Positions 1,158 to 26,599 of a stretch of DNA of 64,000 bases are shown here, piece by piece; positions within the stretch are counted from its first letter, which is position 1, and each line of letters starts with the position of its first letter. Origin of the DNA: an uncultured virus (IMG/VR IMGVR_UViG_3300027747_002439) (taxonomy: Duplodnaviria; Heunggongvirae; Uroviricota; Caudoviricetes); the IMG/VR virus record IMGVR_UViG_3300027747_002439, positions 1-64,000 of that record, one strand, 5' to 3'. The translations under genes and the position numbers were made by a program. Below the pieces are notes generated by a model. It was not told where the DNA came from, made no database searches, and saw only the letters and a list, made by a program, of their open reading frames with translations.

Positions 1158-2174
1158 ATGTTTATAGTAGTTGAAGGTACAGACGCCTCAGGTAAATCTA
1201 CCCTTGTGTCTGAGATACAAAAACAACTTACTGACAAATTTCCTAAGCAGGAAATCGAGTTCTACCATAAGTCTAAGCCAGAAGAGATGTCGCGTCGATG
1301 GGTTTTATACGACTACGTTACGTCTATTGAAAAGGTAGATTGGTCTCAACGTATTGCGGTTGCAGACCGTTGGCACTGGGGCGAGGTAACATATGCCGCT
1401 GTTAAACGTCCTGAGACTGGTTCTGGCGACGGATACGGTTTACTTGGTGTTGCAGGGTGGCGTTGGACAGAGCTCTTTCTTAAATCCCGCGGTGTAGCTC
1501 AATTTTGGTTGTATCAACCTCTTGATGTTATTACTCGTCGTCTTAACACTCGCGGTGACGATTACATACAGGCAAATGAGCTCGAACAAATCTTAGAGCT
1601 GTATCATACCGCTGCTGCAAACTCTGCAGGACTTGCCGCGCGTCTAACACCCTCCCCTGATTCAATTGAAGAGATACCAAAACTTGCCTCGCATGTAATC
1701 AGTCGCGCCGAGGTATTTCAGGAGGACGCAAGGGCACTGGTAAAATTTCCAGAGTACATCGGACAAAGATTTCCACGCGTGTTACTTGTAGGAGATACAA
1801 GAAACATCACTAAGAAATACGGCGAGGAAACTATCCTGCCATTTATGCCTGTTGATGGAAACTCTGGCGAATTTCTACTTACCGCGCTAGAGTCTGACGC
1901 ATGGAAGACGATGGGTATTGTCAACATCAATGACATGTCCGCAGAGCGTTTTGATGATCTGTGGGCTACTCTACGCAGACCTCCTATACTTGCACTAGGG
2001 CGTCTTGCAGAGCGCGGGTTACGTAACGCAAACATTCCAGACTACATGTATACCGTTACATCTCACCCGCAATATGTGCGACGGTTCTTTAACTCAAGAA
2101 AAGAAGAGTACGGCGAAGCTATTACACGTTTATCTAACAAAAAAGATAGGGATGATCAATGGATACTGCGATAA
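1158..2174 (+). CDS. dNMP (thymidylate-type) kinase fused to a C-terminal uracil-DNA glycosylase-like domain
   Basis: N-terminal IVVEGTDASGKST P-loop and DRW motif; C-terminal VLLVGD...PF...SG..L, ILALGRLA and HPQY follow the UDG superfamily layout. Confidence 0.8.
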   Translation: MFIVVEGTDASGKSTLVSEIQKQLTDKFPKQEIEFYHKSKPEEMSRRWVLYDYVTSIEKVDWSQRIAVADRWHWGEVTYAAVKRPETGSGDGYGLLGVAGWRWTELFLKSRGVAQFWLYQPLDVITRRLNTRGDDYIQANELEQILELYHTAAANSAGLAARLTPSPDSIEEIPKLASHVISRAEVFQEDARALVKFPEYIGQRFPRVLLVGDTRNITKKYGEETILPFMPVDGNSGEFLLTALESDAWKTMGIVNINDMSAERFDDLWATLRRPPILALGRLAERGLRNANIPDYMYTVTSHPQYVRRFFNSRKEEYGEAITRLSNKKDRDDQWILR

Positions 2175-3010
2175 TCAATATACCTGACGGAGTTAACGGA
2201 TACGTTGACCTTGTTCAGCACGTTCTTAAGTATGGCAAGGAGGCAGCTCCTCGCGGTATGAAGACCCGCGAGATTGAGGATGCGATTATTCGCATTGAAG
2301 ACGTGTATAACACCTTACCTTTAGGTGTAGGACGTGGAACTGTTCCAGGTATCGGTGCGGTTGAGGCTTGCCAGCTTATCGCAGGTGCAAGCACACCTAA
2401 ACTTGTTATTGCCATCGGCCCACAGTTTGCTAACTATACCGAGGACAACGGACTATTTCACGGAGCATATGGAATTCGCACACAGTCACAGTATGCTCCT
2501 ATAGTTGAAAGACTTAAGGCAGACCCAGATACACGACAGGCGGTCGTTACGATTTGGAATCCGGAGCTAGATCTTCTTGCAAATAAGCGAGATTACCCGT
2601 GCACTATCCTGCATCAATTTAGAATTCGCAACAACAAACTTAACATGAGCGTGTACATGCGTTCAAATGACGTATGGCTAGGAGCGGCGTATGACTTCTT
2701 CCAGTTTACCCGCGTTCAACTTGCTATAGCATCTATCCTGGGCATCGAGCCAGGAACGTATCACCATCACGTCGGATCTCTTCATATCTACGAGCAACAC
2801 TACGACTCTGCAGAAAGTCTAAAGCATACGTACGTTCCGTACGAAAAGATCCCTGCGATAGTGGGCAACTCTTGGGGAGAAGTTTCAAACTTTGCCATGG
2901 ACGCACTAACTGCAGCAATTCATCACGAGGAAAAAGCTCTTCTGTACGGCCTTCACCATTTCGAGCAGTGGTATGCAAACGCCATGATTAAGGCAGTCAA
3001 TAAAAAATGA
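2159..3010 (+). CDS. thymidylate synthase homolog, probable dCMP hydroxymethylase or other dCMP C5-modifying enzyme
   Basis: RDYPC148T catalytic Cys; MRSNDVWLGAAYD179 has Asp at the Asn177 position of ThyA; SLHIYE motif. Confidence 0.85.
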   Translation: MDTAIINIPDGVNGYVDLVQHVLKYGKEAAPRGMKTREIEDAIIRIEDVYNTLPLGVGRGTVPGIGAVEACQLIAGASTPKLVIAIGPQFANYTEDNGLFHGAYGIRTQSQYAPIVERLKADPDTRQAVVTIWNPELDLLANKRDYPCTILHQFRIRNNKLNMSVYMRSNDVWLGAAYDFFQFTRVQLAIASILGIEPGTYHHHVGSLHIYEQHYDSAESLKHTYVPYEKIPAIVGNSWGEVSNFAMDALTAAIHHEEKALLYGLHHFEQWYANAMIKAVNKK

Positions 3011-4050: not shown

Positions 4051-4210
4051 GGAACTAGAGGGGTTTGATCAAAGTCCGCTTCGAGAGGCAACAGTTCAAT
4101 TGCACGAGATGTACATTGAGCTTAAGTCCGCGGGTTTTAGCAAGAAGGAGGCACTACACTTAGTGTCAAAAATTCTTACAACATCGCTTTTTAAGGAAAT
4201 AGATGAGTAA
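4043..4210 (+). CDS. small hypothetical protein
   Basis: GTG start after the AAAGGAG RBS; HEMY...AGFSKKEALHLV. Confidence 0.7.
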   Translation: MSKELEGFDQSPLREATVQLHEMYIELKSAGFSKKEALHLVSKILTTSLFKEIDE

Positions 4211-4682
4211 TCGCCCTTCTTGGGACGAGGTCTGGATGCAGGTTGCAGATGCAATCGCGCAAAGATCTCGCTGCAGTCGTGCTCACATTGGAGCTGTTGT
4301 TGTGTCTAAGGACCAACGTATAAGCTCGACTGGGTACAATGGCCCTGCAGCTTTGTTTCCCGTTGAAGGAGACTGTATAGACTGGTGCCCCCGCGCGCAA
4401 GGCGTAACTGCACTCGATAACACATATGATTCGTGCCCGTCGATTCACGCGGAGTCTAACGCGTTGTTATACGTTGACCGTTCTCGCGTAGAAGGTGGTA
4501 CCATATACATAACAGATGCAGCATGCTATCAGTGCGCTAAGTTAATCTCTAACTCTGGAATTACTCGTGTCGTTATGCGTATTGGAGAGCGGTCGGCTCA
4601 TCGTTTGCCGGATGCAACTGTAGATTATTTTAAGAAATGCAACATCGAGGTAGTAATAACAGAGGACGTAAATGACAGTTGA
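4203..4682 (+). CDS. dCMP deaminase
   Basis: RSRC, TGYNG, HAE, CYQC zinc-binding motifs. Confidence 0.92.
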   Translation: MSNRPSWDEVWMQVADAIAQRSRCSRAHIGAVVVSKDQRISSTGYNGPAALFPVEGDCIDWCPRAQGVTALDNTYDSCPSIHAESNALLYVDRSRVEGGTIYITDAACYQCAKLISNSGITRVVMRIGERSAHRLPDATVDYFKKCNIEVVITEDVNDS

Positions 4683-11408: not shown

Positions 11409-12626
11409 GTGGGTATGAAGATAATCGTTACGGGTTTTACTGCGCTCCAGATTAACACTGAGAAGCGCACAATCCAAAAAATTGACGTGCCTGCTTCTAT
11501 CGTCAAAGCATTACGAGAAGCTGGTCACGATGTTGATTGGCGCAAGGTTACTCCTGGCGAGGATCTGTCGTCTTATGATGCAGCGTGGGTAAACCTTGCA
11601 CCGTTAAACTCACTTAACGGACGTCAAGGCGCTATGGGTGCGCTATACGTTTTATCATCAGGCTTGCCTTGCGTAGGATTCTTTGATGATTGGCAAACAA
11701 ATACAGTATTTAACGGCGCTCGCGCTTTAATTCGTAAACCAGAGATGTTGTATAAGCATCTACTTGTAGGAACTGAACATCGCGGTGACGAAGGCGCAAC
11801 TTACTTTAGTCGTGCAGATATTGACGCAGCTCTCGAGCGTGTCAGAGAATTAAACCCGGCGGCCGCTAAGAAGTGCTACGTTGAACGTTACTACATGATG
11901 GATACAGACGAGAACGTTCAGCCTTATGAAAAACGTTTAGTAGAGGCAGCACGTGATCTCATAGCAGATCGTTGGACTGCAGGTATGGTTCCAGTTTGTC
12001 CTATGTATTCTTTCGGTGATAGATCTATCGTGCGCAAGCGCATGCCTGTTGAGCTAGGACCTATTGAAGCTCTTGACCCAACATCAACTGTAATTCCAAC
12101 ACTTCAACCAGTAACTGCGCTTCAGCCAGAGCACAAGAAAAAGGCTTGGGTTCTTGGAGCTCTTATGCCACATGACACCTGGCTTGAAAGAAAAAATCCT
12201 GATTGGCATGTAGAAATTGTAGGCAGTCGTAAACTTATTAAGAAGCTTGGCGGCCAACGTTTTGATACCGAACAAGATGTACTTGAATTTTACAACAAGC
12301 ACTGGGGAATTCTTTCTCCACCGTATCCACACGCTGGTTCTGGTTGGTGGCGCTCACGTTTCCTCTACGCAGCGCATGTCGGCTCTATTCTTGTAACCGA
12401 TAAGGGTGAGGGCGATCCATTAGGTGATGCGTATAAGTTAAAGATTCCTGATGTTGAAAAGATGACAGACACGCAATTGCATGAAGCAGCAATGGCGCAA
12501 CGCGCCGCTCTTGCTCCATATTTACCAGAATACTCCGCATTTGTTGAACACTGTGACCGTATCATTAAGCGTGCAGTTGCAGAAGATAAAGGCATAGCAA
12601 GAAATGCAGACGGTACTCTCGTATGA
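11409..12626 (+). CDS. GT-B glycosyltransferase resembling T4 DNA beta-glucosyltransferase (paralog 1)
   Basis: DLSSYDAAWVNLAPLN, FFDDWQ and GWWRSRF...ILVTD recall T4 BGT segments DVNDYDRLIVVN, LFTDIR and TLRVWE...MLID (from memory). Confidence 0.65.
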   Translation: MGMKIIVTGFTALQINTEKRTIQKIDVPASIVKALREAGHDVDWRKVTPGEDLSSYDAAWVNLAPLNSLNGRQGAMGALYVLSSGLPCVGFFDDWQTNTVFNGARALIRKPEMLYKHLLVGTEHRGDEGATYFSRADIDAALERVRELNPAAAKKCYVERYYMMDTDENVQPYEKRLVEAARDLIADRWTAGMVPVCPMYSFGDRSIVRKRMPVELGPIEALDPTSTVIPTLQPVTALQPEHKKKAWVLGALMPHDTWLERKNPDWHVEIVGSRKLIKKLGGQRFDTEQDVLEFYNKHWGILSPPYPHAGSGWWRSRFLYAAHVGSILVTDKGEGDPLGDAYKLKIPDVEKMTDTQLHEAAMAQRAALAPYLPEYSAFVEHCDRIIKRAVAEDKGIARNADGTLV

Positions 12627-13669
12627 GTAAAATTCTTATCACAGGTATGACTGCATCTCATGCGTCAGAGAAGGCTAACCTGCGCTCGTTATCTTTTGCC
12701 GGAGTAATGAGACGTGTTCTTGAACAACAAGGTCACGAGGTTATTCAGGAAAACCCAGAGGTATCCTGGAACACAAAGGATCTTGAACAATACGACGCGG
12801 TACTTGTCGGCATCAGCCCTATTACAAGTTTAAGTGCAAATCATGTCTATGGTGCGTTAAGTGTTATGGATGTGCTGCTTGATTCACCTAAGCTGCATCT
12901 ATTTATTGACGCGCCAGAGCCTGCAAAGATTACTGCAAGCCTACGCGCAATGGTTAAGACGCCTGACAACCTCACCAAGCCTTTTTACTCGTACCGCAAG
13001 GGATTTAGCCACGCGTCGGAATCGAACATGCTTAATAACCTTATAGAGGTAATAGAGGACCTTCTCACAAAGCCTTGGCCTGTAACGTTGTATCCGTCAT
13101 TGCCATGGACAAACGAGGAAGAGCACGTTGCAAATCTTTTACCTGAAGGAGCGCGTGATTCTCTTAAGGCAATTAACTTAGATTCATTTTTAATCTCAAC
13201 ACAGGACATGATTGAGACAGAGCGTCGTGATAAGTGGGCAGTGGAAAATTACTCTACGCGATGGGTTAAAACAACTACGGCTACATTGTCAAATCCTACT
13301 GTCCCTATGAAGTGGAACAAGTCATGGAGCGACGCGCAGGTTGATGTACAAATTGCAGCTAGCATAGGCGCTCTTATTCCACCGTATTCTTCAAGCACGT
13401 GGTGGAGTTATAGATACGCTCAATGCATGAACGCATTAACTGCAATCGCTACAGACTGGAAAGAAAGTAGTATTCTTGGGTCTTCCTGGACGCATCTTGC
13501 CTCAAGTATTGAAAGTATGTCCCAGGAGGAGCGTACTACGCTTGCACTAGAACAACGTAAGACGTATCTAGCGAGCATTCCTACACGAAGAGAAGCAACC
13601 ATAAACCTAACACAGGCGTTAGGTTTATTTACGAGAAAAGAGCAAACCAATGTCTATCTTGTTCAATAA
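12623..13669 (+). CDS. GT-B glycosyltransferase-like protein (paralog 2)
   Basis: Colinear similarity to 11409: KILITG, GHEV, YDAVLV..SP..SL, GAL, FID, PPY..TWW..R. Confidence 0.6.
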   Translation: MSKILITGMTASHASEKANLRSLSFAGVMRRVLEQQGHEVIQENPEVSWNTKDLEQYDAVLVGISPITSLSANHVYGALSVMDVLLDSPKLHLFIDAPEPAKITASLRAMVKTPDNLTKPFYSYRKGFSHASESNMLNNLIEVIEDLLTKPWPVTLYPSLPWTNEEEHVANLLPEGARDSLKAINLDSFLISTQDMIETERRDKWAVENYSTRWVKTTTATLSNPTVPMKWNKSWSDAQVDVQIAASIGALIPPYSSSTWWSYRYAQCMNALTAIATDWKESSILGSSWTHLASSIESMSQEERTTLALEQRKTYLASIPTRREATINLTQALGLFTRKEQTNVYLVQ

Positions 13670-14135
13670 CTGGTTAAGACGTACACGTGATCTACAAAAA
13701 GATGTGTACTTTATTAACTATGAAGAAATGGAAGGCGATAAGCCTCAAAATATTCGTCGTCTAGTTGAGTATATGCGTTGGAACATGCTCGCCATCGATG
13801 ACGAACTTGCAGAGATGCGTCAGGCAATATCGTGGAAGCCTTGGCAACATGATGCTCCATACGCAGATCGTGAAGAGATCATCAAGGAGGCTGTTGACGT
13901 CTTGCACTTTGTCGCAAATATCATCGTTGCGGCGGGCGGAACTGACGAGATGCTCGATAAGTTCTATCTTGAAAAGATGGAACGCAACAAGGAACGCCAG
14001 CTTAATGGGTACAAGGTTAAGGACGTAGGAGTAAAGTGTACTCTATGTCAGCGCGCAATTGATGACGTCGGCCGCGGCGCAAGCCCGGATATGTGTGCTA
14101 AATGTTTGCCTAAGGAGGTAGATTACAGTGCCTGA
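13650..14135 (+). CDS. all-alpha dCTPase/dUTPase, T4 gp56-like
   Basis: AIDDE..E...WKPW, E.VDVLHF..N, Y..K...N..RQ.NGY; C-terminal CxxC..CxxC. Confidence 0.85.
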   Translation: MSILFNNWLRRTRDLQKDVYFINYEEMEGDKPQNIRRLVEYMRWNMLAIDDELAEMRQAISWKPWQHDAPYADREEIIKEAVDVLHFVANIIVAAGGTDEMLDKFYLEKMERNKERQLNGYKVKDVGVKCTLCQRAIDDVGRGASPDMCAKCLPKEVDYSA

Positions 14136-15131: not shown

Positions 15132-16394
15132 TTGTCACAACATACCTTTATTGACTGCAACGGCCTTGCCGCGTTCATGAGTCTCGGCTTTGTGCAAAAT
15201 GACATGAAGATGATTCAACGCACTGGAACATTAAACTTTGGAAATGCTGTCGCAGATAACAACCGTCATCTTCTTGGAGATGACTGGACAGCAGAATTTT
15301 CAGATGATCCTAACGAATGGCGCGTGCAAAAAGCAGACATAGTTATGGGCTGTCCTCCCTGCTCTGGTTGGTCCGTATGGTCTGGCCCAGCAAATCGTGG
15401 ACCTGACTCTAAGGCGCACGAGCACACCGTAGCCTTTATGAAATACGCAGGACGAGTGAAACCACGCGCTATTGTTTTTGAGTGTGTTCAACAGGCGTAT
15501 ACACAGGGACGCGATGTAATGGTTAAGTATCGCGACATGGTTGAACAGATCTCAGGTAAAAAGTATGACCTATACCACGTTAAAGAAAACAACCTACAGG
15601 TTGGTGGATTTTCGTATCGTCCTCGCTACTTCTGGGTAGCAGTTGAATCAGGGCTTAAGTTTTCAACTCCGATTACCGAGCCAAAAGAACTTCCACGCAT
15701 TATGGACATCATCGGTGATCTTGCGGAGATGCCTCAGACATGGAACAAGCAAAAGTACACCGCGCCTGCTCCTTCTAAGTGGGTTAAGCATCTACGCACA
15801 AAGGACGGAATGGTTGACGGTCACATCGGTAAAACAAATATTCATGCGCAGCGCATTGAAGAGATCTTTAGTATCATCGGAAATGACGGCTGGGAAGGAA
15901 ATGGCGACACTGGGCAAGCGCTAAAGAAAGCGGTAGACTTAAACGACGGTAAGTTTCCGCAAAAATGGATTGACATTTCTCCTCGCGTTATTCGTAATAA
16001 CTTTAAGCTAGGGTTTTCACAGCCGTATCGTTGGAAAGAAGATCACTGGTGTAACGTATTGACTGGCTCCGCGCTAGATCACGTTGTTCACCCGACGCAG
16101 CCACGACTTATTACACATCGAGAATCTGCTCGTATGCAGGGACTTCCTGATGATTGGAATATTGAAGCTGCACGCGACTACTCACTTCTTGCGGCTGTAT
16201 GGGGAAAGGCTGTTCCAGTGCAGGCTGCCAACTGGCTTGGAAATGCTGTTAAGGATTCACTTGATGGGAATCCACAAGGACCAGACGCAGAGTTAATCGG
16301 AGATCGTGAATATCTTATCGACGCAGATAAGGGATTCTCTAGACACTACGCTAAGAAAAAGTGGTACAGTAGCCCTATGGAGACTGCTAGTTAA
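15132..16394 (+). CDS. atypical DNA cytosine-C5 methyltransferase homolog
   Basis: GCPPCSGWS (IV), FECV (VI), RPR (VIII), RESARMQG.PDDW (IX); motif I is degenerate (CNGLAAF) and motif X reads GKAV. Confidence 0.85.
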   Translation: MSQHTFIDCNGLAAFMSLGFVQNDMKMIQRTGTLNFGNAVADNNRHLLGDDWTAEFSDDPNEWRVQKADIVMGCPPCSGWSVWSGPANRGPDSKAHEHTVAFMKYAGRVKPRAIVFECVQQAYTQGRDVMVKYRDMVEQISGKKYDLYHVKENNLQVGGFSYRPRYFWVAVESGLKFSTPITEPKELPRIMDIIGDLAEMPQTWNKQKYTAPAPSKWVKHLRTKDGMVDGHIGKTNIHAQRIEEIFSIIGNDGWEGNGDTGQALKKAVDLNDGKFPQKWIDISPRVIRNNFKLGFSQPYRWKEDHWCNVLTGSALDHVVHPTQPRLITHRESARMQGLPDDWNIEAARDYSLLAAVWGKAVPVQAANWLGNAVKDSLDGNPQGPDAELIGDREYLIDADKGFSRHYAKKKWYSSPMETAS

Positions 16395-16732: not shown

Positions 16733-17260
16733 ATGCAAACATTTGTACCACAAACTGACTCCTTTGAGCGTATTGCTCAGGAGCTAGATAACAAGCGCCT
16801 TAACAAACAGGTACTTGAGGCATGGCAGCTTATGCTTGTCCTTACCTCGCTAAATCCACAAGGCGAGCACCGTGACCCTAAAGGCTGGCGCAATCACCCT
16901 GCGGCGAAGATGTGGGAAGGCCACGAAAAAGCCCTAGCCTTATACGCAACTACAATGTGTGACGAGTGGCTTAAGCGCGGTTACAAATCTACGATGATTC
17001 CTAAGATTCAAGGAACATTAACTCGCGCGCTTGAGCTAGATCGCATCAGCGACGAGCTAACATTCCCTTACTGGTTTAAGGATAAAGACACATACGAGCA
17101 AATCGCATCTACCCACAGGGTTGCGCTACTGCGTAAGGACTACGAGTGGTACTCACAGTTTGGCTGGCCAGAGGATAAAGGTTATCGCCCTGAGTATTAT
17201 CAATATCTATGGCCTGACGTCAACGGTGTCCTGCAACTAGGCACCTACAACAATATGTAG
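16733..17260 (+). CDS. pyrimidine-dimer DNA glycosylase family protein (DenV/MSMEG_6728-like)
   Basis: MQTF.P, LDNKRLNKQ..E, WRNHPA..MW.G, EW..RGY, H...LLRKD..WY. Confidence 0.85.
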   Translation: MQTFVPQTDSFERIAQELDNKRLNKQVLEAWQLMLVLTSLNPQGEHRDPKGWRNHPAAKMWEGHEKALALYATTMCDEWLKRGYKSTMIPKIQGTLTRALELDRISDELTFPYWFKDKDTYEQIASTHRVALLRKDYEWYSQFGWPEDKGYRPEYYQYLWPDVNGVLQLGTYNNM

Positions 17261-17744: not shown

Positions 17745-18259
17745 GCGGATCGTTAGACTTAGGCTGGCAAAAAGATTCTGCATGTGGGCAACAGGTAAAC
17801 GACGAGTTTAAGGACTTCTTCTTTTCATCTGAGCCTGCAGAAAAATATCAAGCAAAGAATCTTTGCTTCTCATGTCCTGTAAGAAAAGAATGCTTAAAGT
17901 GGGCGTTAGAGCATAAGCAGATCTGGGGTATCTGGGGAGGAAAGGACGAAGGAGAAATTCGTCGCACACTTTCCGTATCATGGAACGGGCAGGAATCTCG
18001 ACGTCAACGTTTTCCGCAGTGTCCATTTTGTAATGCACGACCAAATAAACTTAAGACATTAGTTTTAGACGTTCCAGGCGGAGGGCGTTGGGCAACAATG
18101 CGTCTTGTTCAATGTGAGGCTTGTGATTTTACCTGGCGCTCACGAACAAGTGCAAATGCGGTTGATGCATATCATGTTCAACGCGAGGAAAAATTAGCAA
18201 AGAGCGAGCGCGACAAGGAAAAGAAAAAGAAGCCTAAGAAGGGAAAACCTCTACTGTAG
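17741..18259 (+). CDS. whiB: WhiB-family transcription factor fused to a zinc ribbon
   Basis: W...AC, C.SCPVR.ECL, GIWGG; then CPFC...CEAC and a basic tail. Confidence 0.9.
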   Translation: MSGSLDLGWQKDSACGQQVNDEFKDFFFSSEPAEKYQAKNLCFSCPVRKECLKWALEHKQIWGIWGGKDEGEIRRTLSVSWNGQESRRQRFPQCPFCNARPNKLKTLVLDVPGGGRWATMRLVQCEACDFTWRSRTSANAVDAYHVQREEKLAKSERDKEKKKKPKKGKPLL

Positions 18260-19114
18260 CCAGCGATCCTTATACGCCGCAGCTCTATCTTCCTTATCCT
18301 TTAGATACTCGTACCACCAACGCGATGCGCGTGCATTTTCTGATAGCGTCAGGATACCATAGATAGTTCTGTTATCTAAGTATTGTGTAATTTTCTTATC
18401 GCGCGCGGAGTTAGAAAAGACCATGTACTCCCAGCGGTCAGAATCCTCTAGGTATGAAAGCTCTGAAAGATACTCACGCTTAATGAGGTATGTGCAGTGA
18501 ACACACATGCACTCGACTATTCCTTTAACTCTTTGATCCAGTATGTGGTAGTAGCTATCGTTTGCCACGATTGAACCGTAGTCATCTACGATGTGATGGT
18601 AGTTAGCGTAATACTGTCCAAGGTGTCCTTCGCGCTCCTTGGCGGTTTCCTCGTCATCTACGTTATCACCAAACGCAACAGCATAGCGAATAAACGGAGC
18701 AACGATTGGCAGGTTAAGTTTAATAAGCTCGTTCAACGTCTCTGGGAAAATAAAGTTATCGACGTCAACTACAAAGTAGTATTCGCAGTTGGTTTCTAGA
18801 CACTCGTTAAAACTTTGCTGGCGAATCTTTGCAAGTACCCTAAAACGTTCGCCATTCCACTCGTGTTGCTTAAAGCGCTCGACAGCCTGCTCGACGTTTT
18901 CAGTCTCGTACTTGTAACCCTTATATAGATGCCCGTTCTTTTCAACCCAGTTATTTAAGATTTGAAGGGTATTATCGGTGTTGTTATTTGTGCGGATATA
19001 TAAAAATAATTTTTCCTTAGGGTAATCCCACGCCTCAAGCGACTCAAGAAATAGAGGTAGTACCGCTTCCTTTTGCTTTACAAGAAGTGCAACAAATACA
19101 TCAGGCTGTTCCAT
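18251..19114 (-). CDS. glycosyltransferase resembling the N-terminal GT domain of procollagen galactosyltransferase (COLGALT) or PLOD
   Basis: VALL....LP.FL..LE..DYPKE, NNNTDNT..IL..W, W..ERF.....RQ, VDVDN, IVAP, VHCTYLI, F...AR. Confidence 0.75.
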   Translation of the reverse strand: MEQPDVFVALLVKQKEAVLPLFLESLEAWDYPKEKLFLYIRTNNNTDNTLQILNNWVEKNGHLYKGYKYETENVEQAVERFKQHEWNGERFRVLAKIRQQSFNECLETNCEYYFVVDVDNFIFPETLNELIKLNLPIVAPFIRYAVAFGDNVDDEETAKEREGHLGQYYANYHHIVDDYGSIVANDSYYHILDQRVKGIVECMCVHCTYLIKREYLSELSYLEDSDRWEYMVFSNSARDKKITQYLDNRTIYGILTLSENARASRWWYEYLKDKEDRAAAYKDRWLQ

Positions 19115-20165
19115 TTAGTTGTGCCTCAATTCCTGCTCGATAAAATCTTAGGTTTGTCTTTAAACGTTCGTCGTCAGGGTTACCGGCAAGCGCTAACTCT
19201 CCATATTGTACAGCCTTATCTCTGTCACCTAAATAATGTGCAGATAGTCCGCGCATGTCGTCAAGTTGCCAACGCCATAGCGCCTCGGATGAAAGATAGT
19301 GATCTGTCTTAGCGCATGCGGCGACAAGCTTACATGTTTCCCAGACTCCGCCCCAGTCGCCGGAGTCGTAGTAGCAGCGAACTTTTTCGTAGTAATTTTC
19401 TCCACAAGGATCAATTTCAATTGCCTTGTCTGCCCAGGCGTGCGCTTCTTCCTTCTTGCCGATGTTGCGCAAAGCCTCCGACGCCCAACGACAGACTGCC
19501 GCGCGTTCGATATACCAGTCTTTACTAAACTCAGTTACCTTTTCAGCCGCGCTAATAACAAGTTCCCATTGTCTATAGAAGTAATACTCACGGCATAGGT
19601 AAACCCATATGCGGTGATCCTCGCCAAACTCTTTTGACGCGGCGACAAGCATAGGCAAGTATTGGCCGCGAGATTTTGTATCGTCAGGCTTGTGATACAT
19701 CTTAACTCCGTGAATTTGGCAGCTGATAGCTTCCGTATCAAGCGAAGGAACAAAAACCTCGTGAATTGGATATTTCCAATACATCTTGTGTCGTGAGTGA
19801 AGGCGGCAACCCCACCAAACGTGTCCGGTGTCAAACTCACACCAACCTTTTGTAGCTCCGTCTACCCACTGCTTCTTAACTTCCTCAAAGAAGTTCTCAT
19901 CTACGAGCTCGTCCATGTCTAAGCTCAAACAGACATCTATGTCGTTAGGCAGCAGACTTTGTGCGGTGTTACGGGCGACATCAAAGCGCCAAGGCTTGAC
20001 GCTAATCTCATAGACAGTCACGCCGTGCTCGCGTAGGATCTCAACGGTGCGGTCTGTGGATCCAGTGTCGCATACAAGGCGGAAGTCCGCACCCTTTGTA
20101 GTTTCAGCCCAGCGGGCAGCGTGTTTTTCTTCATTCAACGAGATGGCGTATGCGGCAACTTTCAT
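19101..20165 (-). CDS. GT2 glycosyltransferase with C-terminal TPR repeats (leaderless)
   Basis: NEE, DTGSTDRT, RFDVARN, LDMDE, PIHE; helical TPR-like C-terminus. Confidence 0.88.
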   Translation of the reverse strand: MKVAAYAISLNEEKHAARWAETTKGADFRLVCDTGSTDRTVEILREHGVTVYEISVKPWRFDVARNTAQSLLPNDIDVCLSLDMDELVDENFFEEVKKQWVDGATKGWCEFDTGHVWWGCRLHSRHKMYWKYPIHEVFVPSLDTEAISCQIHGVKMYHKPDDTKSRGQYLPMLVAASKEFGEDHRIWVYLCREYYFYRQWELVISAAEKVTEFSKDWYIERAAVCRWASEALRNIGKKEEAHAWADKAIEIDPCGENYYEKVRCYYDSGDWGGVWETCKLVAACAKTDHYLSSEALWRWQLDDMRGLSAHYLGDRDKAVQYGELALAGNPDDERLKTNLRFYRAGIEAQLNGTA

Positions 20166-20211
20166 GTGGATACCTTATCAAGAATATATTTAGAAAGTGT
20201 TCTTTTACTTA

Positions 20212-20689
20212 CTAAAACTTTGCTATAAATACGCCAGTAATGTCAAACTCTTTATGTTCAATGATTCCAGGGAAAGCCTGAAGAACTCTCTCGGTAGACC
20301 AATCTTCCTCGTGGTGGATCTCGTAAGGGTTTCCGCCCCACGCACCTTGCGGATGATGACCGATAGGTATAGAGATCATCGCGTGTCGAGCTTGCTTAGA
20401 AACAGCTTCCCCCGCCACCGCCTCCTCCAACAACAATAACTGACACATTTGCTGGACTTGAACTTGAGCCAACTGGTAAGGATGTGCTACCTGATGTAGT
20501 AAAGACTTGTTTAAGAGTTGGTGTAGTAGAGACTGTAGTCCATTCCAGACCTGTTGTAGATAAAGATGATGCGGTCAGTACTTGACCATCAGTGCCCACT
20601 GTAAGAGGAGCAGCAGTAGTAGACCCTGTTCTTACAACGAGGGCGCCTTTATCTCCACCAGTGGTTCCAGTTGCTCTTGCCTTTGTCAT
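20212..20689 (-). pseudogene. chimeric remnant: N-terminus of a glycine-rich fibre gene joined out of frame to the C-terminus of a probable methyltransferase
   Basis: Frame A stops just after IVVGGGGGGG; frame B continues with ISIPIGHHPQG...NPYE.H..DW and has no convincing start; junction at the G-run 20409-20413. Confidence 0.6.
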
Positions 20690-20798
20690 CTATCTATGTC
20701 CTTTACTATGTTTTTATTGCGCTTTTTATAAGACCATTCTCTCATTGTTATGGGGTTTTGTAGGTGTAAATATACCACATTTTTTTTGCGTTAAAAAC

Positions 20799-21458
20799 CT
20801 AAAATGACTCTGTTTTCCATGCTTTATAAGCCGGTCCAAATATACTTCCATTTCCCGCACGATAATGTTGTATGGACTCTTTATGAATAATGTAAGAGTT
20901 CGCACCTAAAAACTCTTGTACGCCCTCTTTAGTTTTTTCTAACGTTTTTAATATTGAATTTGTAAAAATTATGTACCCAACCTCATTTATTTCGTAATCA
21001 ACTACGCTTTTATACGTTATATTTTCATAGTACTTGTTTTTAATGCTAATTAAAAGCTCTTTTAAAAAAATACTAGATGATTCTGATGCAAAAATAGACT
21101 GTGTATATCCCCATATATTAGGTTCGCTAGAAACAACAAATTTTGAATCTGTTTTTAACCAACTTTCTATTGGTTTTTTACAAATCATATCAAGATCAGT
21201 ATATAAACCCCCATTTATATAAAGGCACATATACCTCCATAGATCTGACCTTAATACGTCTAATTTATAGGAGGTGTATATATTTTTCCACTCTTCACCA
21301 AAATGCTCTTCTACAAATATGGCTCTTTCTTTTCCAGAAACATATTTAAATTCCCAATCTGGATTTAAAGATTTCCAAGATTCAACACACTCTTTAGCCT
21401 TATCTGGAAGCTCGTCATATTCAGACTCATATGTTTGCCAAATTATTTTATTTATCAT
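20799..21458 (-). CDS. GT32 (OCH1-like, DxD) glycosyltransferase
   Basis: KIIWQT, SW...NPDW, RSDLWRY, GGLYTDLD. Confidence 0.9.
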   Translation of the reverse strand: MINKIIWQTYESEYDELPDKAKECVESWKSLNPDWEFKYVSGKERAIFVEEHFGEEWKNIYTSYKLDVLRSDLWRYMCLYINGGLYTDLDMICKKPIESWLKTDSKFVVSSEPNIWGYTQSIFASESSSIFLKELLISIKNKYYENITYKSVVDYEINEVGYIIFTNSILKTLEKTKEGVQEFLGANSYIIHKESIQHYRAGNGSIFGPAYKAWKTESF

Positions 21459-21460
21459 TT

Positions 21461-22447
21461 TTAAATACTTGAACTTAATGGCGGTGTTACGCCTTCATCC
21501 CACACAGCCCTAAAGCACTCTTTGCATACACCCTCATATGCTTTTTGAATTGCATTTTTTCTTTCTTGACTATTCCAAATATCTTTAATTGTTCTATTAT
21601 TTATGTTTTCATACACTGTTTCATAATTAAAATCTGCACAACACAAATAAACGTTTCCTGTAGCAGAAATAAATAATTCTTCTTCTGTGTAGTTAAATCC
21701 ACACCCAATAACTTTTCCATGCTGTTGGGTTTTAATTGCTGCTTGGTTTGAGATGACTTTTAAGCTAGAGAGAATGTTTGTTCTATCAGATAAATTGTTT
21801 CTTAAAAAAACCATAATGTTTGGAAACATTGATTGCATTGTATTCACTATTTTTTTATGCTCTTCATCGCTATAAAATGGAGCATTTTCCAAAACTTCCA
21901 TCCATCCACCATTTTCAAACTTAGCTTCTGGACTAATTCCATTAACTAATATCATTAATTTTTTTCCGCTAAAAGTTTGATACAAGGTGTCATTTGCGTA
22001 TTGCAAATTGGCAATTAACTTATCAAAAATTTTTGGATTAAATCCCGTAAACCTTGACCACTGTTCTCGTTCTATAGAAGGAACATTTAAAATAATATCT
22101 GTTACAACATCTCGATAATCATTTATCAAATCTGATTTGTTCGGCGTCAAATTAACACCGTTTGAAAATAAATACATTTTAATGTTGTATTTACGATGAA
22201 GGGCAAGCATCTCTTCAAAATGAGGGTATAAAAGAGTTTCATTATAATGAATTGGGTTATTATATATTTCAATATTGTCGGCAACAAAATCTCCGCGACC
22301 TTCATCAATTTGCTTAAGGATACTTTCCATAGTTTCTATGGTCATAGTTCCCCGATTTTCTTTTGGATTGCCCAAATATGCTACTGGGCAAAACCAACAT
22401 TTTGCGTTGCATAATCCATTTGGGTCTATGTTTATGTGCCTAATCAT
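21461..22447 (-). CDS. radical SAM protein with SPASM/twitch domain
   Basis: CNAKCWFC; GNVYLCC..D...IW...CKEC. Confidence 0.9.
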   Translation of the reverse strand: MIRHINIDPNGLCNAKCWFCPVAYLGNPKENRGTMTIETMESILKQIDEGRGDFVADNIEIYNNPIHYNETLLYPHFEEMLALHRKYNIKMYLFSNGVNLTPNKSDLINDYRDVVTDIILNVPSIEREQWSRFTGFNPKIFDKLIANLQYANDTLYQTFSGKKLMILVNGISPEAKFENGGWMEVLENAPFYSDEEHKKIVNTMQSMFPNIMVFLRNNLSDRTNILSSLKVISNQAAIKTQQHGKVIGCGFNYTEEELFISATGNVYLCCADFNYETVYENINNRTIKDIWNSQERKNAIQKAYEGVCKECFRAVWDEGVTPPLSSSI

Positions 22448-23336
22448 TATTAGAAATCCATTCTTTAAGACCCACTTGTGGAGACCAGTTTAATACAGAT
22501 TTTGCTTTTTCTATGTTGGAAAGAGTCTCTTTTGCCTCCGTTGGACGCGGTTTAGTGTAAATAACGTTGTGATTAAACATGCTAGCAACTTCATTAATTG
22601 AGTAGTTTACTCCACTACCAATGTTAAATACTTGTCCCAAAAATGTGGGGTCTACATCTTTTGTTGCAGCTAAAATATTGGCGTTAACTACATCTTTAAC
22701 ATACGTAAAGTCACGGCGTTGTTCACCATCCCCTACAATAGTAAGCGGCATCTTAATTTCTTTTTGTCTTTTAAACGTACCAACAACGGGCGCATAAATA
22801 CCCTTTACTGGTTGGCGTTCTCCATAGACATTAAAATAACGTAAAGAAATAGTTTCTAAACCGTGGTGATTTGTATAAAAGCGGCATAGATCCTCACCGT
22901 TTACTTTAGAAATAGAATAGGGGTTTAAACAATCGTTAGGTTGAGTCTCCACATTGGGCACTAGGTTTTTTCCATAAGCGGAAGAAGTAGACGAATAAAC
23001 AACCCTTTTTACGCCCGCTTCTTTTGCACATTCTAAAACAGTTGCTGTTCCCAAAGAGTTTACACGTATAGTTTCAAGAGGTTCATTTATCGTTCTTTGA
23101 ATACGAGCTTGGGCAGCAAAATGAAACACGTAATCTGCCTTAAAATAAAGTCCTTTGGTTTGATCGTAATCGCATATGTCTAATACGTGGTTTTCAGCCT
23201 TTGAGTTCCAATAAAACTTTTCATTAGAAACAGCCGATTCATTGTCTATGACCACTACTTCGTGACCCTGACTTATAAGCGCATCTACTAAATTAGAGCC
23301 TATAAATCCAGCTCCGCCTGTAACCAGTGCTCTCAT
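22440..23336 (-). CDS. NAD-dependent nucleotide-sugar epimerase/dehydratase
   Basis: VTGGAGFIGS, YSISK, LRYFNVYG, RDFTYVKD. Confidence 0.95.
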   Translation of the reverse strand: MRALVTGGAGFIGSNLVDALISQGHEVVVIDNESAVSNEKFYWNSKAENHVLDICDYDQTKGLYFKADYVFHFAAQARIQRTINEPLETIRVNSLGTATVLECAKEAGVKRVVYSSTSSAYGKNLVPNVETQPNDCLNPYSISKVNGEDLCRFYTNHHGLETISLRYFNVYGERQPVKGIYAPVVGTFKRQKEIKMPLTIVGDGEQRRDFTYVKDVVNANILAATKDVDPTFLGQVFNIGSGVNYSINEVASMFNHNVIYTKPRPTEAKETLSNIEKAKSVLNWSPQVGLKEWISNND

Positions 23337-23343
23337 ATTGCTC

Positions 23344-24183
23344 CTAATAATATTTTTCTATATTAATATTTTTTTTATTTAATTTTACAAGGATATTAGA
23401 ATACGCTTTATCAAACTCTTCCCACGAATTAAGTTTTTTCCATTCACCAATTGACATGCTATTTTTATTAATGTTTTTAGCAAAATATTTTTTTAATCTT
23501 TCTTCATTATTTATATTTAAAAACTTTAATATTTTACCCTGTTCAAAAATTGATTGTTTTTCAACAAAATCTTCTAATCGTACGTTTATGTATTGCTCTT
23601 TATTTATCTGGTTTAATGACTCAAAAGACTGTGTAATCCTATCGTACCACCAATCAAGGCAGTCAAATTCATTTTTAGACCCCTCTACAGAAAAGTAGTC
23701 TCTCATTTTATAGATAGAATAGGCAGAGTCTCTGCCATCTCTAAACATATGAATAAACTTAGAATCTGGCATTATTTGAGTTATTCTGTGAGAATACCTT
23801 ATATTTGATGGGGTTGAGTCACCTATATATAAAGATCCTTGCTTAAACCCCTTTTGTTTTATAATAAGATTAAAATAAAAATTTTTAATTGTTTCTTCAG
23901 TTATATTTGCATTTATTTTTTTTAAGTCGTCAAAGAGTTCTTCAATATCTATAAAATTTTGTAACCCTATAGTTTTATTAGTTCCATACTTCCATGTTTT
24001 TTCAAAGTATGTGTTAAAGGTAGAAATATTTTTTGTTTCAAATAAATCTAAAAGGCCGTGTTTTTCTGTTAGAACTCTTATTTCTATTGGGTTACTTGCA
24101 TAAATTTTTGAATGGCTTCCTAAATACTCTAAGCAAACAGTTGTTCCACTTCTTCCTGTTCCACCAACAAAAAGTGGGATCAT
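23344..24183 (-). CDS. PAPS-dependent sulfotransferase
   Basis: GTGRSGTT (5'-PSB), RDGRD...S (3'-PB), RLED. Confidence 0.88.
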   Translation of the reverse strand: MIPLFVGGTGRSGTTVCLEYLGSHSKIYASNPIEIRVLTEKHGLLDLFETKNISTFNTYFEKTWKYGTNKTIGLQNFIDIEELFDDLKKINANITEETIKNFYFNLIIKQKGFKQGSLYIGDSTPSNIRYSHRITQIMPDSKFIHMFRDGRDSAYSIYKMRDYFSVEGSKNEFDCLDWWYDRITQSFESLNQINKEQYINVRLEDFVEKQSIFEQGKILKFLNINNEERLKKYFAKNINKNSMSIGEWKKLNSWEEFDKAYSNILVKLNKKNINIEKYY

Positions 24184-24899
24184 TTTTCAAAAAAGCTTCT
24201 ATAAAAATTGTTTGTTTTTGACATGCCATTTATTTCATTAAAAAACTTTTCCCTGTACACTACTCTTAAATCGTCATCGTATCTTAAAATCATATTATCA
24301 TCAGTAACTTCTGCATAATATAAAACCTTATCTAACCTTCTCCAAGTAAATGGATTTTGTTTACAGTAGCGCACTACTCTTTGCCAGTAGTCTTCGTCAC
24401 CACTGTACTCTGTATTATCAAAATAACCAAATATTTCAAAAGCTTTTTTGCTAAAAAATCCGTGGGCTATATTTATCATTGGTGTAAAAGGTGGGTTGTA
24501 CCATTCTGGTGGAGGATTTCCTATTCTTATTTCTAAATCTTGAACGTTTAAAATATTTTCATCTTCATTAAAAACATTTAAAATTTCTTCAAACCTTGTT
24601 GGTTGTGAAAAGTCATCGGCATCGTGAGTTGTATAAATGTCGTAATCTTCTGTTTCCATAAAACGTATTCCAAGATTTTTACTATAAAAACACCCTTTAT
24701 TTTTTTCATTGCTTATAACACGAACTCTTGGATCGTATAAAAATTTATTTGCTTCTTCTAAAGAGTTATCTGAAGAGTTATCGTTGATTATAACTAAAGA
24801 AAAGTTTTCATGTGTTTGCTCAAGGATGCTATGAACAGCCCGTTTTAATAAACGAGCTTCGTTGTACACAGGTAATGAGACTAATATTTTTTTTGTCAT
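24180..24899 (-). CDS. GT2 glycosyltransferase
   Basis: LPVYN, INDNSSDNS, HDADD, D.DY. Confidence 0.9.
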   Translation of the reverse strand: MTKKILVSLPVYNEARLLKRAVHSILEQTHENFSLVIINDNSSDNSLEEANKFLYDPRVRVISNEKNKGCFYSKNLGIRFMETEDYDIYTTHDADDFSQPTRFEEILNVFNEDENILNVQDLEIRIGNPPPEWYNPPFTPMINIAHGFFSKKAFEIFGYFDNTEYSGDEDYWQRVVRYCKQNPFTWRRLDKVLYYAEVTDDNMILRYDDDLRVVYREKFFNEINGMSKTNNFYRSFFEK

Positions 24900-25567
24900 A
24901 TGCTGTATCCTAAATTTTCAAACTCCCATTGCCAACTATCTTGAATCATGTTTAAGTGGCTTTGATTAAAAACATCTGTGTATACAATATTAGTTGGCCT
25001 AAACGCTTTTTCTCTTATTTTTAATTGTATTTTTGGTAAATTGTGTAAGGGCAAAACTGCGTTAATTTCGTCTTCTATTCCGTTTTCATAGTATAGTATT
25101 TTATTAACAGCAAGGCTTCCGTCATAGTGCAGGTATATGTTTTTTGAGCTTCTGTACCAAATCCACCCTAAATCGTCATTAAAGTATCTGTCGACCAAGT
25201 TTTGCCGTTCTTCTTTTTCTAGCGTGTTCCAAATAAAATTTTTTTGAATAAAGTATAATCTATGAAAAAAATCAGACAAAACTGCTTTATAGGGGTGTCG
25301 AACAAATACATAGGCATTGGCTTTACTTAAATCAAGTTTGTTTGCAATATCCACATAAGGGATGTGGTTATAAAAACCAATTTCATAATTGCGAGGTTTA
25401 TACCCAGCAATTTTAGGCTCATCTAATTTCCATGCTGGATTATCCGAAGTCTTTGGGGTTACTATTGCATTATCTGGAACAATCATAGAAAGAGGAACTT
25501 CAAGAGAAGTGCCACCTACTTTATGGTTTTTTAATAGAAGAAAATTATGGTCGGGGGAGTAAATCAC
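24896..25567 (-). CDS. sulfotransferase family 2 (HNK-1/chondroitin sulfotransferase-like)
   Basis: KNHKVGGTS, FVRHPY...S, YYEN, FENLGY. Confidence 0.8.
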   Translation of the reverse strand: MIYSPDHNFLLLKNHKVGGTSLEVPLSMIVPDNAIVTPKTSDNPAWKLDEPKIAGYKPRNYEIGFYNHIPYVDIANKLDLSKANAYVFVRHPYKAVLSDFFHRLYFIQKNFIWNTLEKEERQNLVDRYFNDDLGWIWYRSSKNIYLHYDGSLAVNKILYYENGIEDEINAVLPLHNLPKIQLKIREKAFRPTNIVYTDVFNQSHLNMIQDSWQWEFENLGYSI

Positions 25568-25893
25568 TCTCTACCCCATTTAATTTTGTTCCAAACCCTT
25601 TCGTGATAATAATAAAGAACAATTTTAACCACTAACTCAATACCTGAAGCAATAAGAGCTAGTTTAGCTTTATGCGTTAGTTCATAAATAATTATAAAAG
25701 AAATTAAATTGCCAAAAAATCTCCAACTAACTGCTTTAGCAAGTGATCGAGCATGGGATGCCCAAAAAATTGAGTTTACTTTTGTCGGCTGTGACCATAA
25801 TCTTTCTTCTGCTTTACCAATATTTTCCATTCCAACCCACCAATATTTAAATGCCGAGCTGCTTGCGTTTTTCAGTTGCTGAAATGGCTTCAA
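25564..25893 (-). CDS. DUF2061 membrane protein
   Basis: RSLAKAVSWR and K.VLYYYHERVW..I.WG. Confidence 0.85.
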   Translation of the reverse strand: MKPFQQLKNASSSAFKYWWVGMENIGKAEERLWSQPTKVNSIFWASHARSLAKAVSWRFFGNLISFIIIYELTHKAKLALIASGIELVVKIVLYYYHERVWNKIKWGRE

Positions 25894-26599
25894 TGTCTGC
25901 TCCTAACGATACTTGTTCAATTTTATAACCAACATCTCTACCATACACAATGTTAGTAATGTTAGGCATTTTTACTATCATTGCGCGTGTCATGTGAGGG
26001 TCTTGGGAAATGTAGTCTTTTACTTCATCAAAAGAAAGTGGGTCTTTAGGACTTGTTCCCTGAGTATTGCGAACACCAAGCATTACCTGCCCCGTGCGCT
26101 TTTTTGCCTCGTTATAAAGCGCGTGATGCCCTTCGTGCCAAGGTTGGTATCGACCTAGCATAAGAGTAGTTGGTTCTTTCCAATCGTATAACCCAGATTG
26201 GTTAATGATTGCATCTGTTTGACCCTCTGCGTCATAGCTCATCCAACGATAATCAAATTCAATTGGGTCTTCCCACAGTTTATTAGTGTCTTCAAAACGA
26301 CCTTCTTGAATTGTGTTCATCCATATAAGAATATCTGGTTTTCCAAACGATTGGCGAGTTGTTTGTGTTGGGCATACAAAATCAACTACAACATCTAACC
26401 CTTGACCAGAAAGCATACGAGCCATTTCACCCATACGCCGAGCATGCTCAATTCTATCTTCGACAGTAAAGCCTAAGTCTGAATTAACAGTAGAGCGAAC
26501 ATAATCTGCATTTAAATGAACAGCATTGATTCTATCTGATAGTTCAATGGCAAGGGTTGTCTTGCCACTGCCTGGTAATCCTATAATCTGAACAATCAT
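25847..26599 (-). CDS. cysC: adenylylsulfate (APS) kinase fused to an HxGH nucleotidyltransferase domain
   Basis: GLPGSGKTT, D.VR, DLGFT.EDR.E.ARR; C-terminal GRYQPWHEGH...RDVGY. Confidence 0.85.
   Translation of the reverse strand: MIVQIIGLPGSGKTTLAIELSDRINAVHLNADYVRSTVNSDLGFTVEDRIEHARRMGEMARMLSGQGLDVVVDFVCPTQTTRQSFGKPDILIWMNTIQEGRFEDTNKLWEDPIEFDYRWMSYDAEGQTDAIINQSGLYDWKEPTTLMLGRYQPWHEGHHALYNEAKKRTGQVMLGVRNTQGTSPKDPLSFDEVKDYISQDPHMTRAMIVKMPNITNIVYGRDVGYKIEQVSLGADIEAISATEKRKQLGI

Follow-up and report, generated by a model that had tools for sequence, protein, structure and literature searches.

The stretch of DNA analysed here (the window) comprises positions 1 to 64,000 of a Caudoviricetes record from an uncultured virus (IMG/VR IMGVR_UViG_3300027747_002439); the source record has 74,850 bases and is estimated to be 58% complete. 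At 15132..16394 it carries a gene for a 420-aa protein with the fold of the DNA cytosine-5 methyltransferases (C5-methylases), in which the Asn of motif X is replaced by Lys (Lys359). An earlier note on this DNA had proposed either a DNA carboxymethyltransferase or a cytosine modifier that does without S-adenosylmethionine (SAM). Following the analysis given below, we hold with moderate confidence that the protein belongs to a phage branch of this fold, here called Lys-type, and that it is a conserved, active, non-canonical cytosine-C5 enzyme of a 5-hydroxymethylcytosine (hmC) module, which probably acts without SAM. The gene and its motifs are listed here, with SpCmoX, a natural carboxy-SAM (Cx-SAM) enzyme of Synechococcus phage S-B43, as the reference for the cofactor site:

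15132..16394, plus strand: Lys-type C5-cytosine-methyltransferase-fold gene, 420 aa, TTG start
15153..15179, plus strand: D8-C-N-G-L-A-A-F-M16, an altered motif I that replaces the D-x-F-x-G-x-G-G SAM loop (column mapping to SpCmoX)
15225..15227, plus strand: Gly32 at the acidic (ribose-binding) position of motif II (SpCmoX E47 column)
15348..15374, plus strand: motif IV, G73-C-P-P-C77-S-G-W-S, with the catalytic Cys (translation, alignment)
15477..15488, plus strand: motif VI, F116-E117-C-V, canonically E-N-V (translation, alignment)
15618..15632, plus strand: motif VIII, R163-P-R165-Y-F (translation, alignment)
16104..16151, plus strand: motif IX, R325-L-I-T-H-R-E-S-A-R-M-Q-G-L-P-D (translation, alignment)
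16200..16220, plus strand: motif X, W357-G-K359-A-V-P-V, with the K359 codon AAG at 16206-16208

The TTG start is preceded at 9 nt by AAGGG, and the start position is common to close homologs. The protein matches PF00145 at 1.5e-18 (67.8 bits, cut-off 22) over residues 65-373, equivalent to profile positions 58-322, with the N-terminal cofactor-binding part (residues 1-64) lying outside the match; SpCmoX itself is matched over its full length, at 180 bits. With TIGR00675 (NCBIfam dcm) it scored 34.4 bits, the cut-off of this profile being 100.65. An AlphaFold2 model was built on a 124-sequence alignment (mean pLDDT 95.5, pTM 0.93), and the top matches of this model in Foldseek and VIA-align were DNA C5-methylases only. 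In VIA-align these were DNMT1 (Z 29.8, rmsd 3.3, 356 aligned residues), the prophage CP-933R enzyme 3G7U (Z 28.8), M.HaeIII (Z 28.6, rmsd 2.7, 288 aligned residues), M.HhaI (Z 25.9), M.MpeI (Z 23.9) and SpCmoX 8YF3 (Z 22.9). All of the matches cover model residues 1-380, and the fold, Rossmann half included, is therefore intact. The protein is thus predicted to have the two-domain architecture of the DNA (cytosine-5)-methyltransferases, with a target-recognition domain of the DNMT1/HaeIII kind. A PF00145 score above the cut-off, solved structural neighbours that are all DNA C5-methylases and the methyltransferase label of homologs in public records would suit an ordinary SAM-dependent 5-methylcytosine (5mC) methyltransferase with a divergent SAM pocket, which methylates unreplaced phage cytosines or host DNA. 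Taking into account the evidence presented in the following paragraphs, we consider this explanation unlikely, though it deserves to be taken seriously.

The first of this evidence concerns motif X. In the HMMER alignment, K359 of 'WGKAVPV' pairs with the Asn of M.HaeIII 'IGNAVPV', and both in a profile-profile comparison (probability 98.6%) and in the family alignment it falls on Arg350 of SpCmoX, a residue that has been equated with Asn304 of M.HhaI (PMC12783734, Nat Commun 2025). As the alignments to M.HaeIII and SpCmoX agree, the observation of the earlier note that this Lys occupies the position of the motif X Asn is correct, and the protein has Gly-Lys in place of the canonical Gly-Asn. 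The Lys was found in 121/121 close homologs, which are the best matches from a search of 5.8 billion proteins with identity down to 61%. An exhaustive search of 50%-identity representatives identified 809 proteins at E <= 0.001 (140 of them at E <= 1e-30), and a family alignment was made of the best 150 of these and the query (151 rows, identity down to ~30%). In the K359 column of this alignment there are 139 Lys, five gaps and seven other residues (139/146 non-gap rows). The 12 rows without Lys are short fragments or proteins also lacking the PPC or Glu motifs, except for P0156 (Arg) and P0218 (Gln). The Lys is thus neither sporadic nor the mark of a decaying gene and, as judged from these alignments, the change goes far past anything that chance or decay would produce.

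The catalytic motifs described as intact in the earlier note (PPC, Glu117, R163/R165 and motif IX) can all be read from the translation, and they are held across the family. Among the non-gap rows of the family alignment, C77 is kept in 124/126, the Glu of motif VI in 139/140, R163 in 142/145 and R165 in 145/145; R325, T328, R330, E331, R334, G337 and P339 of motif IX are nearly invariant. One representative, P0249 (752 aa), is interrupted in motif IV by a Hint/LAGLIDADG intein, which follows Pro-Pro and immediately precedes the catalytic Cys. The intein at this site, the near invariance of the catalytic Cys, Glu and both Arg down to ~30% identity, and the fact that rare members without catalytic residues are also without the Lys are difficult to reconcile with a former methylase that now binds DNA without catalysing any reaction. 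That explanation would account for the loss of cofactor-binding residues, and we regard it as highly improbable.

The apparatus for flipping out a cytosine-type base and for attack of Cys77 on C6 is kept (PPC, Glu117, Arg163/Arg165, motif IX and the target-recognition domain), whereas the surroundings of C5 have been rebuilt. Lys359 takes the place of the Asn beside the transferred methyl, Ser78 that of the Gln which canonically follows the catalytic Cys (as in M.HaeIII 'GGPPCQSWS'), and Cys118 that of the Asn of E-N-V. Across the Lys-type family the consensus sequences are D-C-(Q/N/H)-G-(F/L)-A-G-(G/A)-F for motif I, G-N-P-P-C-S-G-F-S for motif IV (with Q after the Cys in M.HaeIII), F-E-S-V for motif VI (compared to E-N-V) and W-G-K-G-(V/I)-P for motif X; the residue after the Glu of motif VI is Ser in 130 rows and Cys in seven. 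That these three C5-side residues (Asn to Lys, Gln to Ser and Asn to Ser/Cys) are altered together throughout the family speaks against an ordinary methylase.

For the cofactor site, the sequence of SpCmoX was taken from MN018232.1 and added to a 124-row family alignment for column mapping. In the crystal structure of SpCmoX the adenosine part of Cx-SAM is contacted by F25, E47, F48 and D69 (PMC12783734). The residues of motifs I to III map as follows:

SpCmoX F25: N10 in the window's protein
SpCmoX G27: L12 in the window's protein
SpCmoX G29: A14 in the window's protein
SpCmoX G30: F15 in the window's protein
SpCmoX E47: G32 in the window's protein
SpCmoX F48: T33 in the window's protein
SpCmoX D69: segment missing from all 124 family rows

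The F-x-G-x-G-G of motif I, the acidic residue of motif II and the Asp of motif III, by which SAM binding would be recognised, are thus absent from the 420-aa protein. The earlier note was right that the cofactor pocket is remodelled, the SpCmoX contact columns being changed or deleted; its reading of motif I needs a small refinement of the register, since within the translated region F6-I-D-C-N-G-L-A-A-F15 the canonical F-x-G-x-G-G corresponds by profile alignment to N10-G11-L12-A13-A14-F15. Each of N10, L12 and Gly32 is present in 31/31 members of the window's clade; at the position of Gly32, 58/93 distant representatives have Glu. All five contacts mapped (F25, G27, E47, F48, D69) are changed or deleted in this clade, a further point against an ordinary methylase.

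Positions 12 and 32 were found to vary together. Among the 59 distant representatives with Glu or Asp at position 32, position 12 is Phe in 44, Tyr in five and Leu in seven, and among the 34 without an acidic residue there it is Leu in 29 and Phe in two. The window's clade, with Leu12 and Gly32 in 31/31 members, belongs to the second, non-acidic-32 subtype, as do the Gordonia phage enzymes; the seven representatives in which the enzyme is fused to another methyltransferase-fold domain all belong to the Phe12/Glu32 subtype. Both subtypes share Lys359, Ser78 and the Ser/Cys of motif VI. From the covariation of Phe12 with Glu32 and of Leu12 with a non-Glu residue, it is argued that the window's clade has lost nucleoside binding as a unit. 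Members of the Phe12/Glu32 subtype may still hold an adenosine-containing ligand by means of the shifted aromatic residue, and in the Leu12/Gly32 subtype of the window the adenosine side of the site would have been lost as a whole.

These changes bear directly on the carboxymethyltransferase proposed in the earlier note, in effect a Lys version of CmoX using Cx-SAM to carboxymethylate C5 of DNA cytosine. Its starting point, that an engineered motif X Lys variant uses Cx-SAM, was confirmed: M.MpeI N374K and M.MedI N377K both move carboxymethyl from Cx-SAM (PMC12015181). In SpCmoX, the residue on which K359 falls, Arg350, binds the carboxymethyl group of Cx-SAM, and the window's enzyme shares with SpCmoX the Ser after the catalytic Cys; in the S-B43 pathway the phage CmoA makes Cx-SAM and CmoY then ligates the product to glycine, while in E. 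coli the host CmoA is able to supply Cx-SAM (PMC12783734). The CmoX survey described in that article required 'SPPC' and Arg350, and Lys-type proteins therefore fell outside it. The window's protein has CPPC and most of the family NPPC, the column of Arg350 holds a residue that is basic but is not Arg, and N10, G32, T33 and a deleted segment stand in place of the adenosine contacts of Cx-SAM, which are thus lost.

The supply of Cx-SAM was assessed by searching for CmoA with TIGR00740 (E <= 0.01), S-B43 serving as positive control, and SpCmoA of S-B43 was recovered at 2.5e-34. CmoA was found in 0/5 of a first set consisting of the window's record (58% complete) and the complete genomes of DSL-LC01, GMA2, Kurnik and Phendrix, and in 0/22 enzyme-bearing IMG/VR records, including 0/10 of those at least 90% complete. 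The remark of the earlier note that a CmoA-like synthase is not visible in the window thus extends to 27 carrier records. There was also no CmoA signal in Corynebacterium glutamicum, the sole actinobacterium among the control genomes, and supply by the host is therefore not supported, as far as one actinobacterial genome can tell. CmoX enzymes are reported in company with CmoA, 4257 CmoA genes having been counted alongside 5615 CmoX candidates (PMC12783734). The neighbours of the window's gene are glycosyltransferases and kinases, which need a hydroxyl, and no amide ligase is among those annotated. The Cx-SAM route was rejected as a candidate given the lack of any TIGR00740 match in the window's own record, the four complete phages and the 22 IMG/VR records, and the carboxymethyltransferase is considered improbable. 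It is the other half of the earlier proposal, a non-SAM cytosine modifier, that stands as the best reading, and it does so by inference.

The surroundings of the gene point to a candidate hydroxymethylcytosine pathway, the members of which, with other genes of the window, are listed here:

1158..2174, plus strand: thymidylate-kinase-like P-loop protein, candidate hydroxymethyl-dCMP kinase (phrog_761 at 5e-13; weak AAA_18 match)
2159..3010, plus strand: thymidylate synthase (TS)-fold enzyme of cytosine type, candidate dCMP hydroxymethylase (PF00303 at 3.2e-26)
3007-4050: GT2 glycosyltransferase (annotation of window proteins)
4203..4682, plus strand: dCMP deaminase (PF00383 at 9.7e-19)
11409..12626, plus strand: GT-B fold glycosyltransferase, 405 aa, candidate DNA glycosyltransferase (AlphaFold2 pLDDT 85.7)
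12623..13669, plus strand: paralog of the GT-B protein, 348 aa (19% identity; weak match to the shared phrog_14998)
13650..14135, plus strand: MazG/dUTPase_2-like nucleotide pyrophosphohydrolase, candidate dCTPase (PF08761 at 3.3e-11; phrog_18650)
between the MazG-like gene and the Lys-type enzyme gene: three small ORFs, including DUF6378
16733-17260: pyrimidine-dimer DNA glycosylase resembling T4 endonuclease V, two genes downstream of the enzyme (PF03013, 2e-20)
after the enzyme gene, with the pyrimidine-dimer glycosylase: WhiB (annotation of window proteins)
further genes of the window: DNA polymerase A, SNF2 helicase, PD-(D/E)XK nuclease, AAA_24 and DUF669

The closest solved relative of the TS-fold protein is the CMP 5-hydroxymethylase MilA (5B6D, 2.4e-23). 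The TS-fold protein has Asp at the position of Asn177 of ThyA and retains the catalytic Cys and D169; D169N has been described as the mark of 5-hydroxy-dCMP synthases (PMC13326640). The presence of this cytosine-type gene with its Asp, Cys and D169 bears out the view of the earlier note that the operon apparently supplies a C5-modified nucleotide. The 405-aa ORF at 11409-12626 has no Pfam match, its top Foldseek matches are GT-B enzymes and T4 beta-glucosyltransferase 1QKJ is among the best of these (E 2.9e-5, TM 0.47/0.53); for this ORF and the one at 12623-13669, a sequence search against solved structures gave no match. Homologs of the pyrimidine-dimer glycosylase were found in 38/84 related loci. 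Given these genes, it is inferred that hmC replaces cytosine in the phage DNA. Such DNA would offer an ordinary C5-methylase no C5-H to methylate, and yet the gene is fixed alongside the cytosine-type TS-fold enzyme, which again weighs against an enzyme of that sort.

A TET route, as in phage clusters that combine a C5-methyltransferase with a TET/5mYOX dioxygenase and a glycosyltransferase, was tried and rejected as a candidate, PF12851 being found in 0/4 complete relatives and giving one sub-threshold match in the window's own record, outside the window (16.9 bits, cut-off 34.9; G000:C1:66291-66485). The ORF matched there (locus L010 1345-1974, minus strand) encodes a generic 209-aa 2OG-Fe(II) oxygenase, which scores better with 2OG-FeII_Oxy_3 (3.1e-12) than with Tet_JBP (17.2 bits against the cut-off of 34.9). 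No 5-hydroxymethyldeoxyuridine (5-hmdU) DNA kinase was found in the genome of the window or in the four named relatives. Elsewhere in the window, on the minus strand at 18251-26599, lies a glycan-type run comprised of an Anp1/GT2-like protein, a GT2 with TPR, a DXD sugar-binding glycosyltransferase, a radical SAM/SPASM protein, an NAD epimerase/dehydratase, a sulfotransferase, another GT2 and an APS-kinase/cytidylyltransferase-like protein. The products of this run might attach a sulfated sugar to virion proteins or to DNA.

In the set of cultured phages, the enzyme was found in 15 records representing 10 phages of Gordonia, Micrococcus and an uncultured actinophage, the carriers including Gordonia phages GMA2, Phendrix and GodonK and Micrococcus phage Kurnik. 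It is in these genomes that the nearest relatives of the window's TS homolog occur. A TS-fold gene is present in 5/5 and 21/22 of the enzyme-bearing records (26/27), and in 10/10 of those at least 90% complete, the sole record without one being 80% complete; the Asp at the ThyA Asn177 position occurs in 26/26 of these homologs, all of which also retain the Cys and D169. Gene order is kept even in loci whose enzyme is 30-40% identical, running SNF2-PDDEXK-AAA24-DUF669-[variable genes]-MazG-enzyme, with a MazG homolog no more than 1.5 kb upstream of the enzyme gene in 51/69 loci having enough flank. The variable genes encode GT1-, RGP/STELLO-like and other glycosyltransferases, sugar-nucleotide enzymes (epimerase, nucleotidyltransferase, SIS) and, in some loci, kinase-type proteins that are HMUDK_HMUD1-like (L064, L085) or match HMUDK_hel (L090), with a weak match to amino-acid:DNA-transferase (ADDT) at L085. 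The enzyme gene is thus a fixed member of a module, occurring with a MazG-like pyrophosphohydrolase and variable DNA-decorating enzymes in phages that have a cytosine-type TS-fold hydroxymethylase.

In GMA2 (L002 665-2936) and Phendrix (L004 72-1205) the glycosyltransferase-MazG-enzyme module is preceded, at a distance of a few kb, by large arrays of tRNA genes. The kinase-like neighbours are located at L085 6596-9156, L064 1114-1680 and L090 8156-8974, and the TS homologs of these loci are of the cytosine (Asp) type. This suggests that distant relatives carry out a kinase-dependent hypermodification of hydroxymethylcytosine of a kind so far known for hydroxymethyluracil. One Lys-type enzyme, P0248, is fused to HMUDK_hel, and FkbM- or Methyltransf_23/UbiG-like domains are fused in the seven representatives P0142, P0160, P0164, P0165, P0192, P0197 and P0223. 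Second methyltransferase-fold genes also adjoin the enzyme in a few of the 84 loci (L080 2003-2662, L090 12817-13536, L001 and L059). A second modification step and the making of a cofactor are candidate roles for such fused or adjacent domains; as a hidden cofactor synthase this partner was rejected, as it occurs in few of the 84 loci and none lies beside the window's gene. In DSL-LC01 a 170-aa protein (L001 11428-11940), a class I SAM-dependent methyltransferase according to GenBank, is encoded directly upstream of the enzyme, and it also occurs at L059 18455-19042; it gave no Pfam or NCBIfam match and has no counterpart in the window.

Considering the retained catalytic apparatus together with the rebuilt C5 surroundings and the module in which the gene is found, the following mechanism can be proposed. 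The enzyme would work without SAM on hydroxymethylcytosine in the phage DNA, or on cytosines that escape replacement. Cys77 would add to C6 of the substrate base, Lys359 would serve as an acid/base or as an anchor for an oxygen-bearing substituent at C5, and the hydroxymethyl group would thereby be made, exchanged or activated. Ordinary methylases are capable of comparable reactions, M.HhaI converting cytosine with formaldehyde to 5hmC without cofactor and M.SssI coupling thiols to 5hmC (PMC7176277), and such chemistry is therefore feasible for the fold. The mention in the earlier note of cofactor-free C5-methylase chemistry is supported by this article as regards the addition of a nucleophile (thiol) to hmC. 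We put forward only tentatively, as a possible reading, that the protein is a natural SAM-independent enzyme of the C5-methylase fold, in which Cys-C6 catalysis and the Lys make, exchange or activate the 5-hydroxymethyl group of DNA cytosine.

The same features could also be explained if the target were the DNA of the host. The enzyme would then be a SAM-free weapon on unmodified host cytosine DNA, to which the hmC DNA of the phage is immune: Cys77 would add to C6, Lys359 would protonate C5, and the resulting dihydrocytosine would deaminate to uracil or stay as a protein-DNA adduct. C5-methylases deaminate cytosine in the absence of SAM, and T4 uses cytosine-specific nucleases, the role that would be assigned here to the enzyme. 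The strict link to a cytosine-replacement pathway, the adjacency to the MazG-like candidate dCTPase and an eroded cofactor site with an invariant proton-bearing residue at the methyl position would all be accounted for. The fusions to 5-hmdU-DNA-kinase and other methyltransferase-fold domains point instead to the phage's own modified DNA, and an integrase lies near one carrier locus (L073). A weapon of this kind appears quite unlikely to us.

A number of points weigh against the view of the protein as an active hmC-module enzyme that does without SAM. The model retains a complete Rossmann half, and 59/93 distant members retain the acidic residue of motif II, the Gly-Gly and an aromatic residue two positions along, because of which the ancestral family may bind SAM or a SAM analogue; the retention of these residues also favours an ordinary methylase. 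So does the fact that M.MedI N377K retains full methylation with SAM (PMC12015181), and Lys at motif X does not, for this reason, exclude methyl transfer by itself. The co-occurrence with the TS-fold gene is partly inherited, as all carriers share one replication-module synteny, and is to this extent not independent evidence. The hmC content of the phage DNA is a prediction from its genes, and the same observations would suit an enzyme that acts on host cytosine DNA.

Among the systems already described that resemble the window's enzyme is SpCmoX (S-B43, PDB 8YF3), which is likewise a phage protein of the C5-methylase fold with a basic motif X residue (R350 for K359) and Ser after the Cys, and which makes a handle for DNA hypermodification (PMC12783734). 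It differs from the window's enzyme in its canonical motifs I-III (FAGGGG, E47, F48, D69) and ENV, and it travels with CmoA and an amide ligase, whereas the window's enzyme is found with a TS-fold hydroxymethylase, MazG and glycosyltransferases. M.MpeI N374K and M.MedI N377K share the Lys at motif X, their position being equated with K359 via SpCmoX and M.HhaI N304; these are, however, single mutants with intact SAM pockets, while the Lys of the window's enzyme is natural, invariant and accompanied by a rebuilt pocket. The canonical enzymes M.HaeIII, M.HhaI, 3G7U and DNMT1/MET1 share the two-domain fold over residues 1-380 (Z 25-30) and motifs IV, VI (Glu), VIII and IX. Unlike these, the window's enzyme lacks the Phe and first Gly of motif I, the Glu of motif II and the motif III region, and has Lys for the motif X Asn, Ser for Gln and Cys for the Asn of ENV.

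The pathway leading to glucosylated hmC in T4 (gp42, gp1, gp56, Cd and the alpha/beta-glucosyltransferases) has its likeness in the cytosine-type TS-fold, kinase-like, dCMP deaminase, MazG-like and beta-glucosyltransferase-like GT-B genes of the window. To our knowledge, the T4 pathway is without an enzyme of the C5-methylase fold, whereas such an enzyme is one of the fixed members of the actinophage module. The cofactor-free reactions of M.HhaI with formaldehyde and of M.SssI with thiols resemble the mechanism proposed for the window's enzyme in that covalent C6 catalysis makes or rewrites a 5-hydroxymethyl group without SAM, although normal enzymes carry them out as side reactions when the reagent is supplied at high concentration (PMC7176277). 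No natural enzyme specialised for such reactions was described in the literature searched on C5-methyltransferases and hmC hypermodification. The Lys-type family is likewise undescribed in the main texts on carboxymethylcytosine, phage Cx-SAM, hmC hypermodification by C5-methyltransferases, hmC in actinophages and DSL-LC01. Nor is the family described in the passages on actinophages and methyltransferases of the 2023 glycosyltransferase preprint, and the supplementary sequence lists of PMC12783734 were outside the scope of this search.

One consequence for the CmoX family is that it becomes bounded, in that a basic motif X residue alone does not identify a carboxymethyltransferase. If the Lys-type enzymes do act on (hydroxymethyl)cytosine without SAM, this would represent a new class of reaction for a well-studied fold and a new step in phage DNA hypermodification, being the biological counterpart of the 'atypical' reactions that methylases carry out in vitro. 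Pyrimidine hypermodification would then have a third route, in addition to those by way of thymidylate synthase and TET. Such enzymes could give a natural starting point for tools for the labelling or rewriting of 5hmC, for which engineered methylases are now used under forcing conditions, and the existence of cultured carriers makes the question directly testable.

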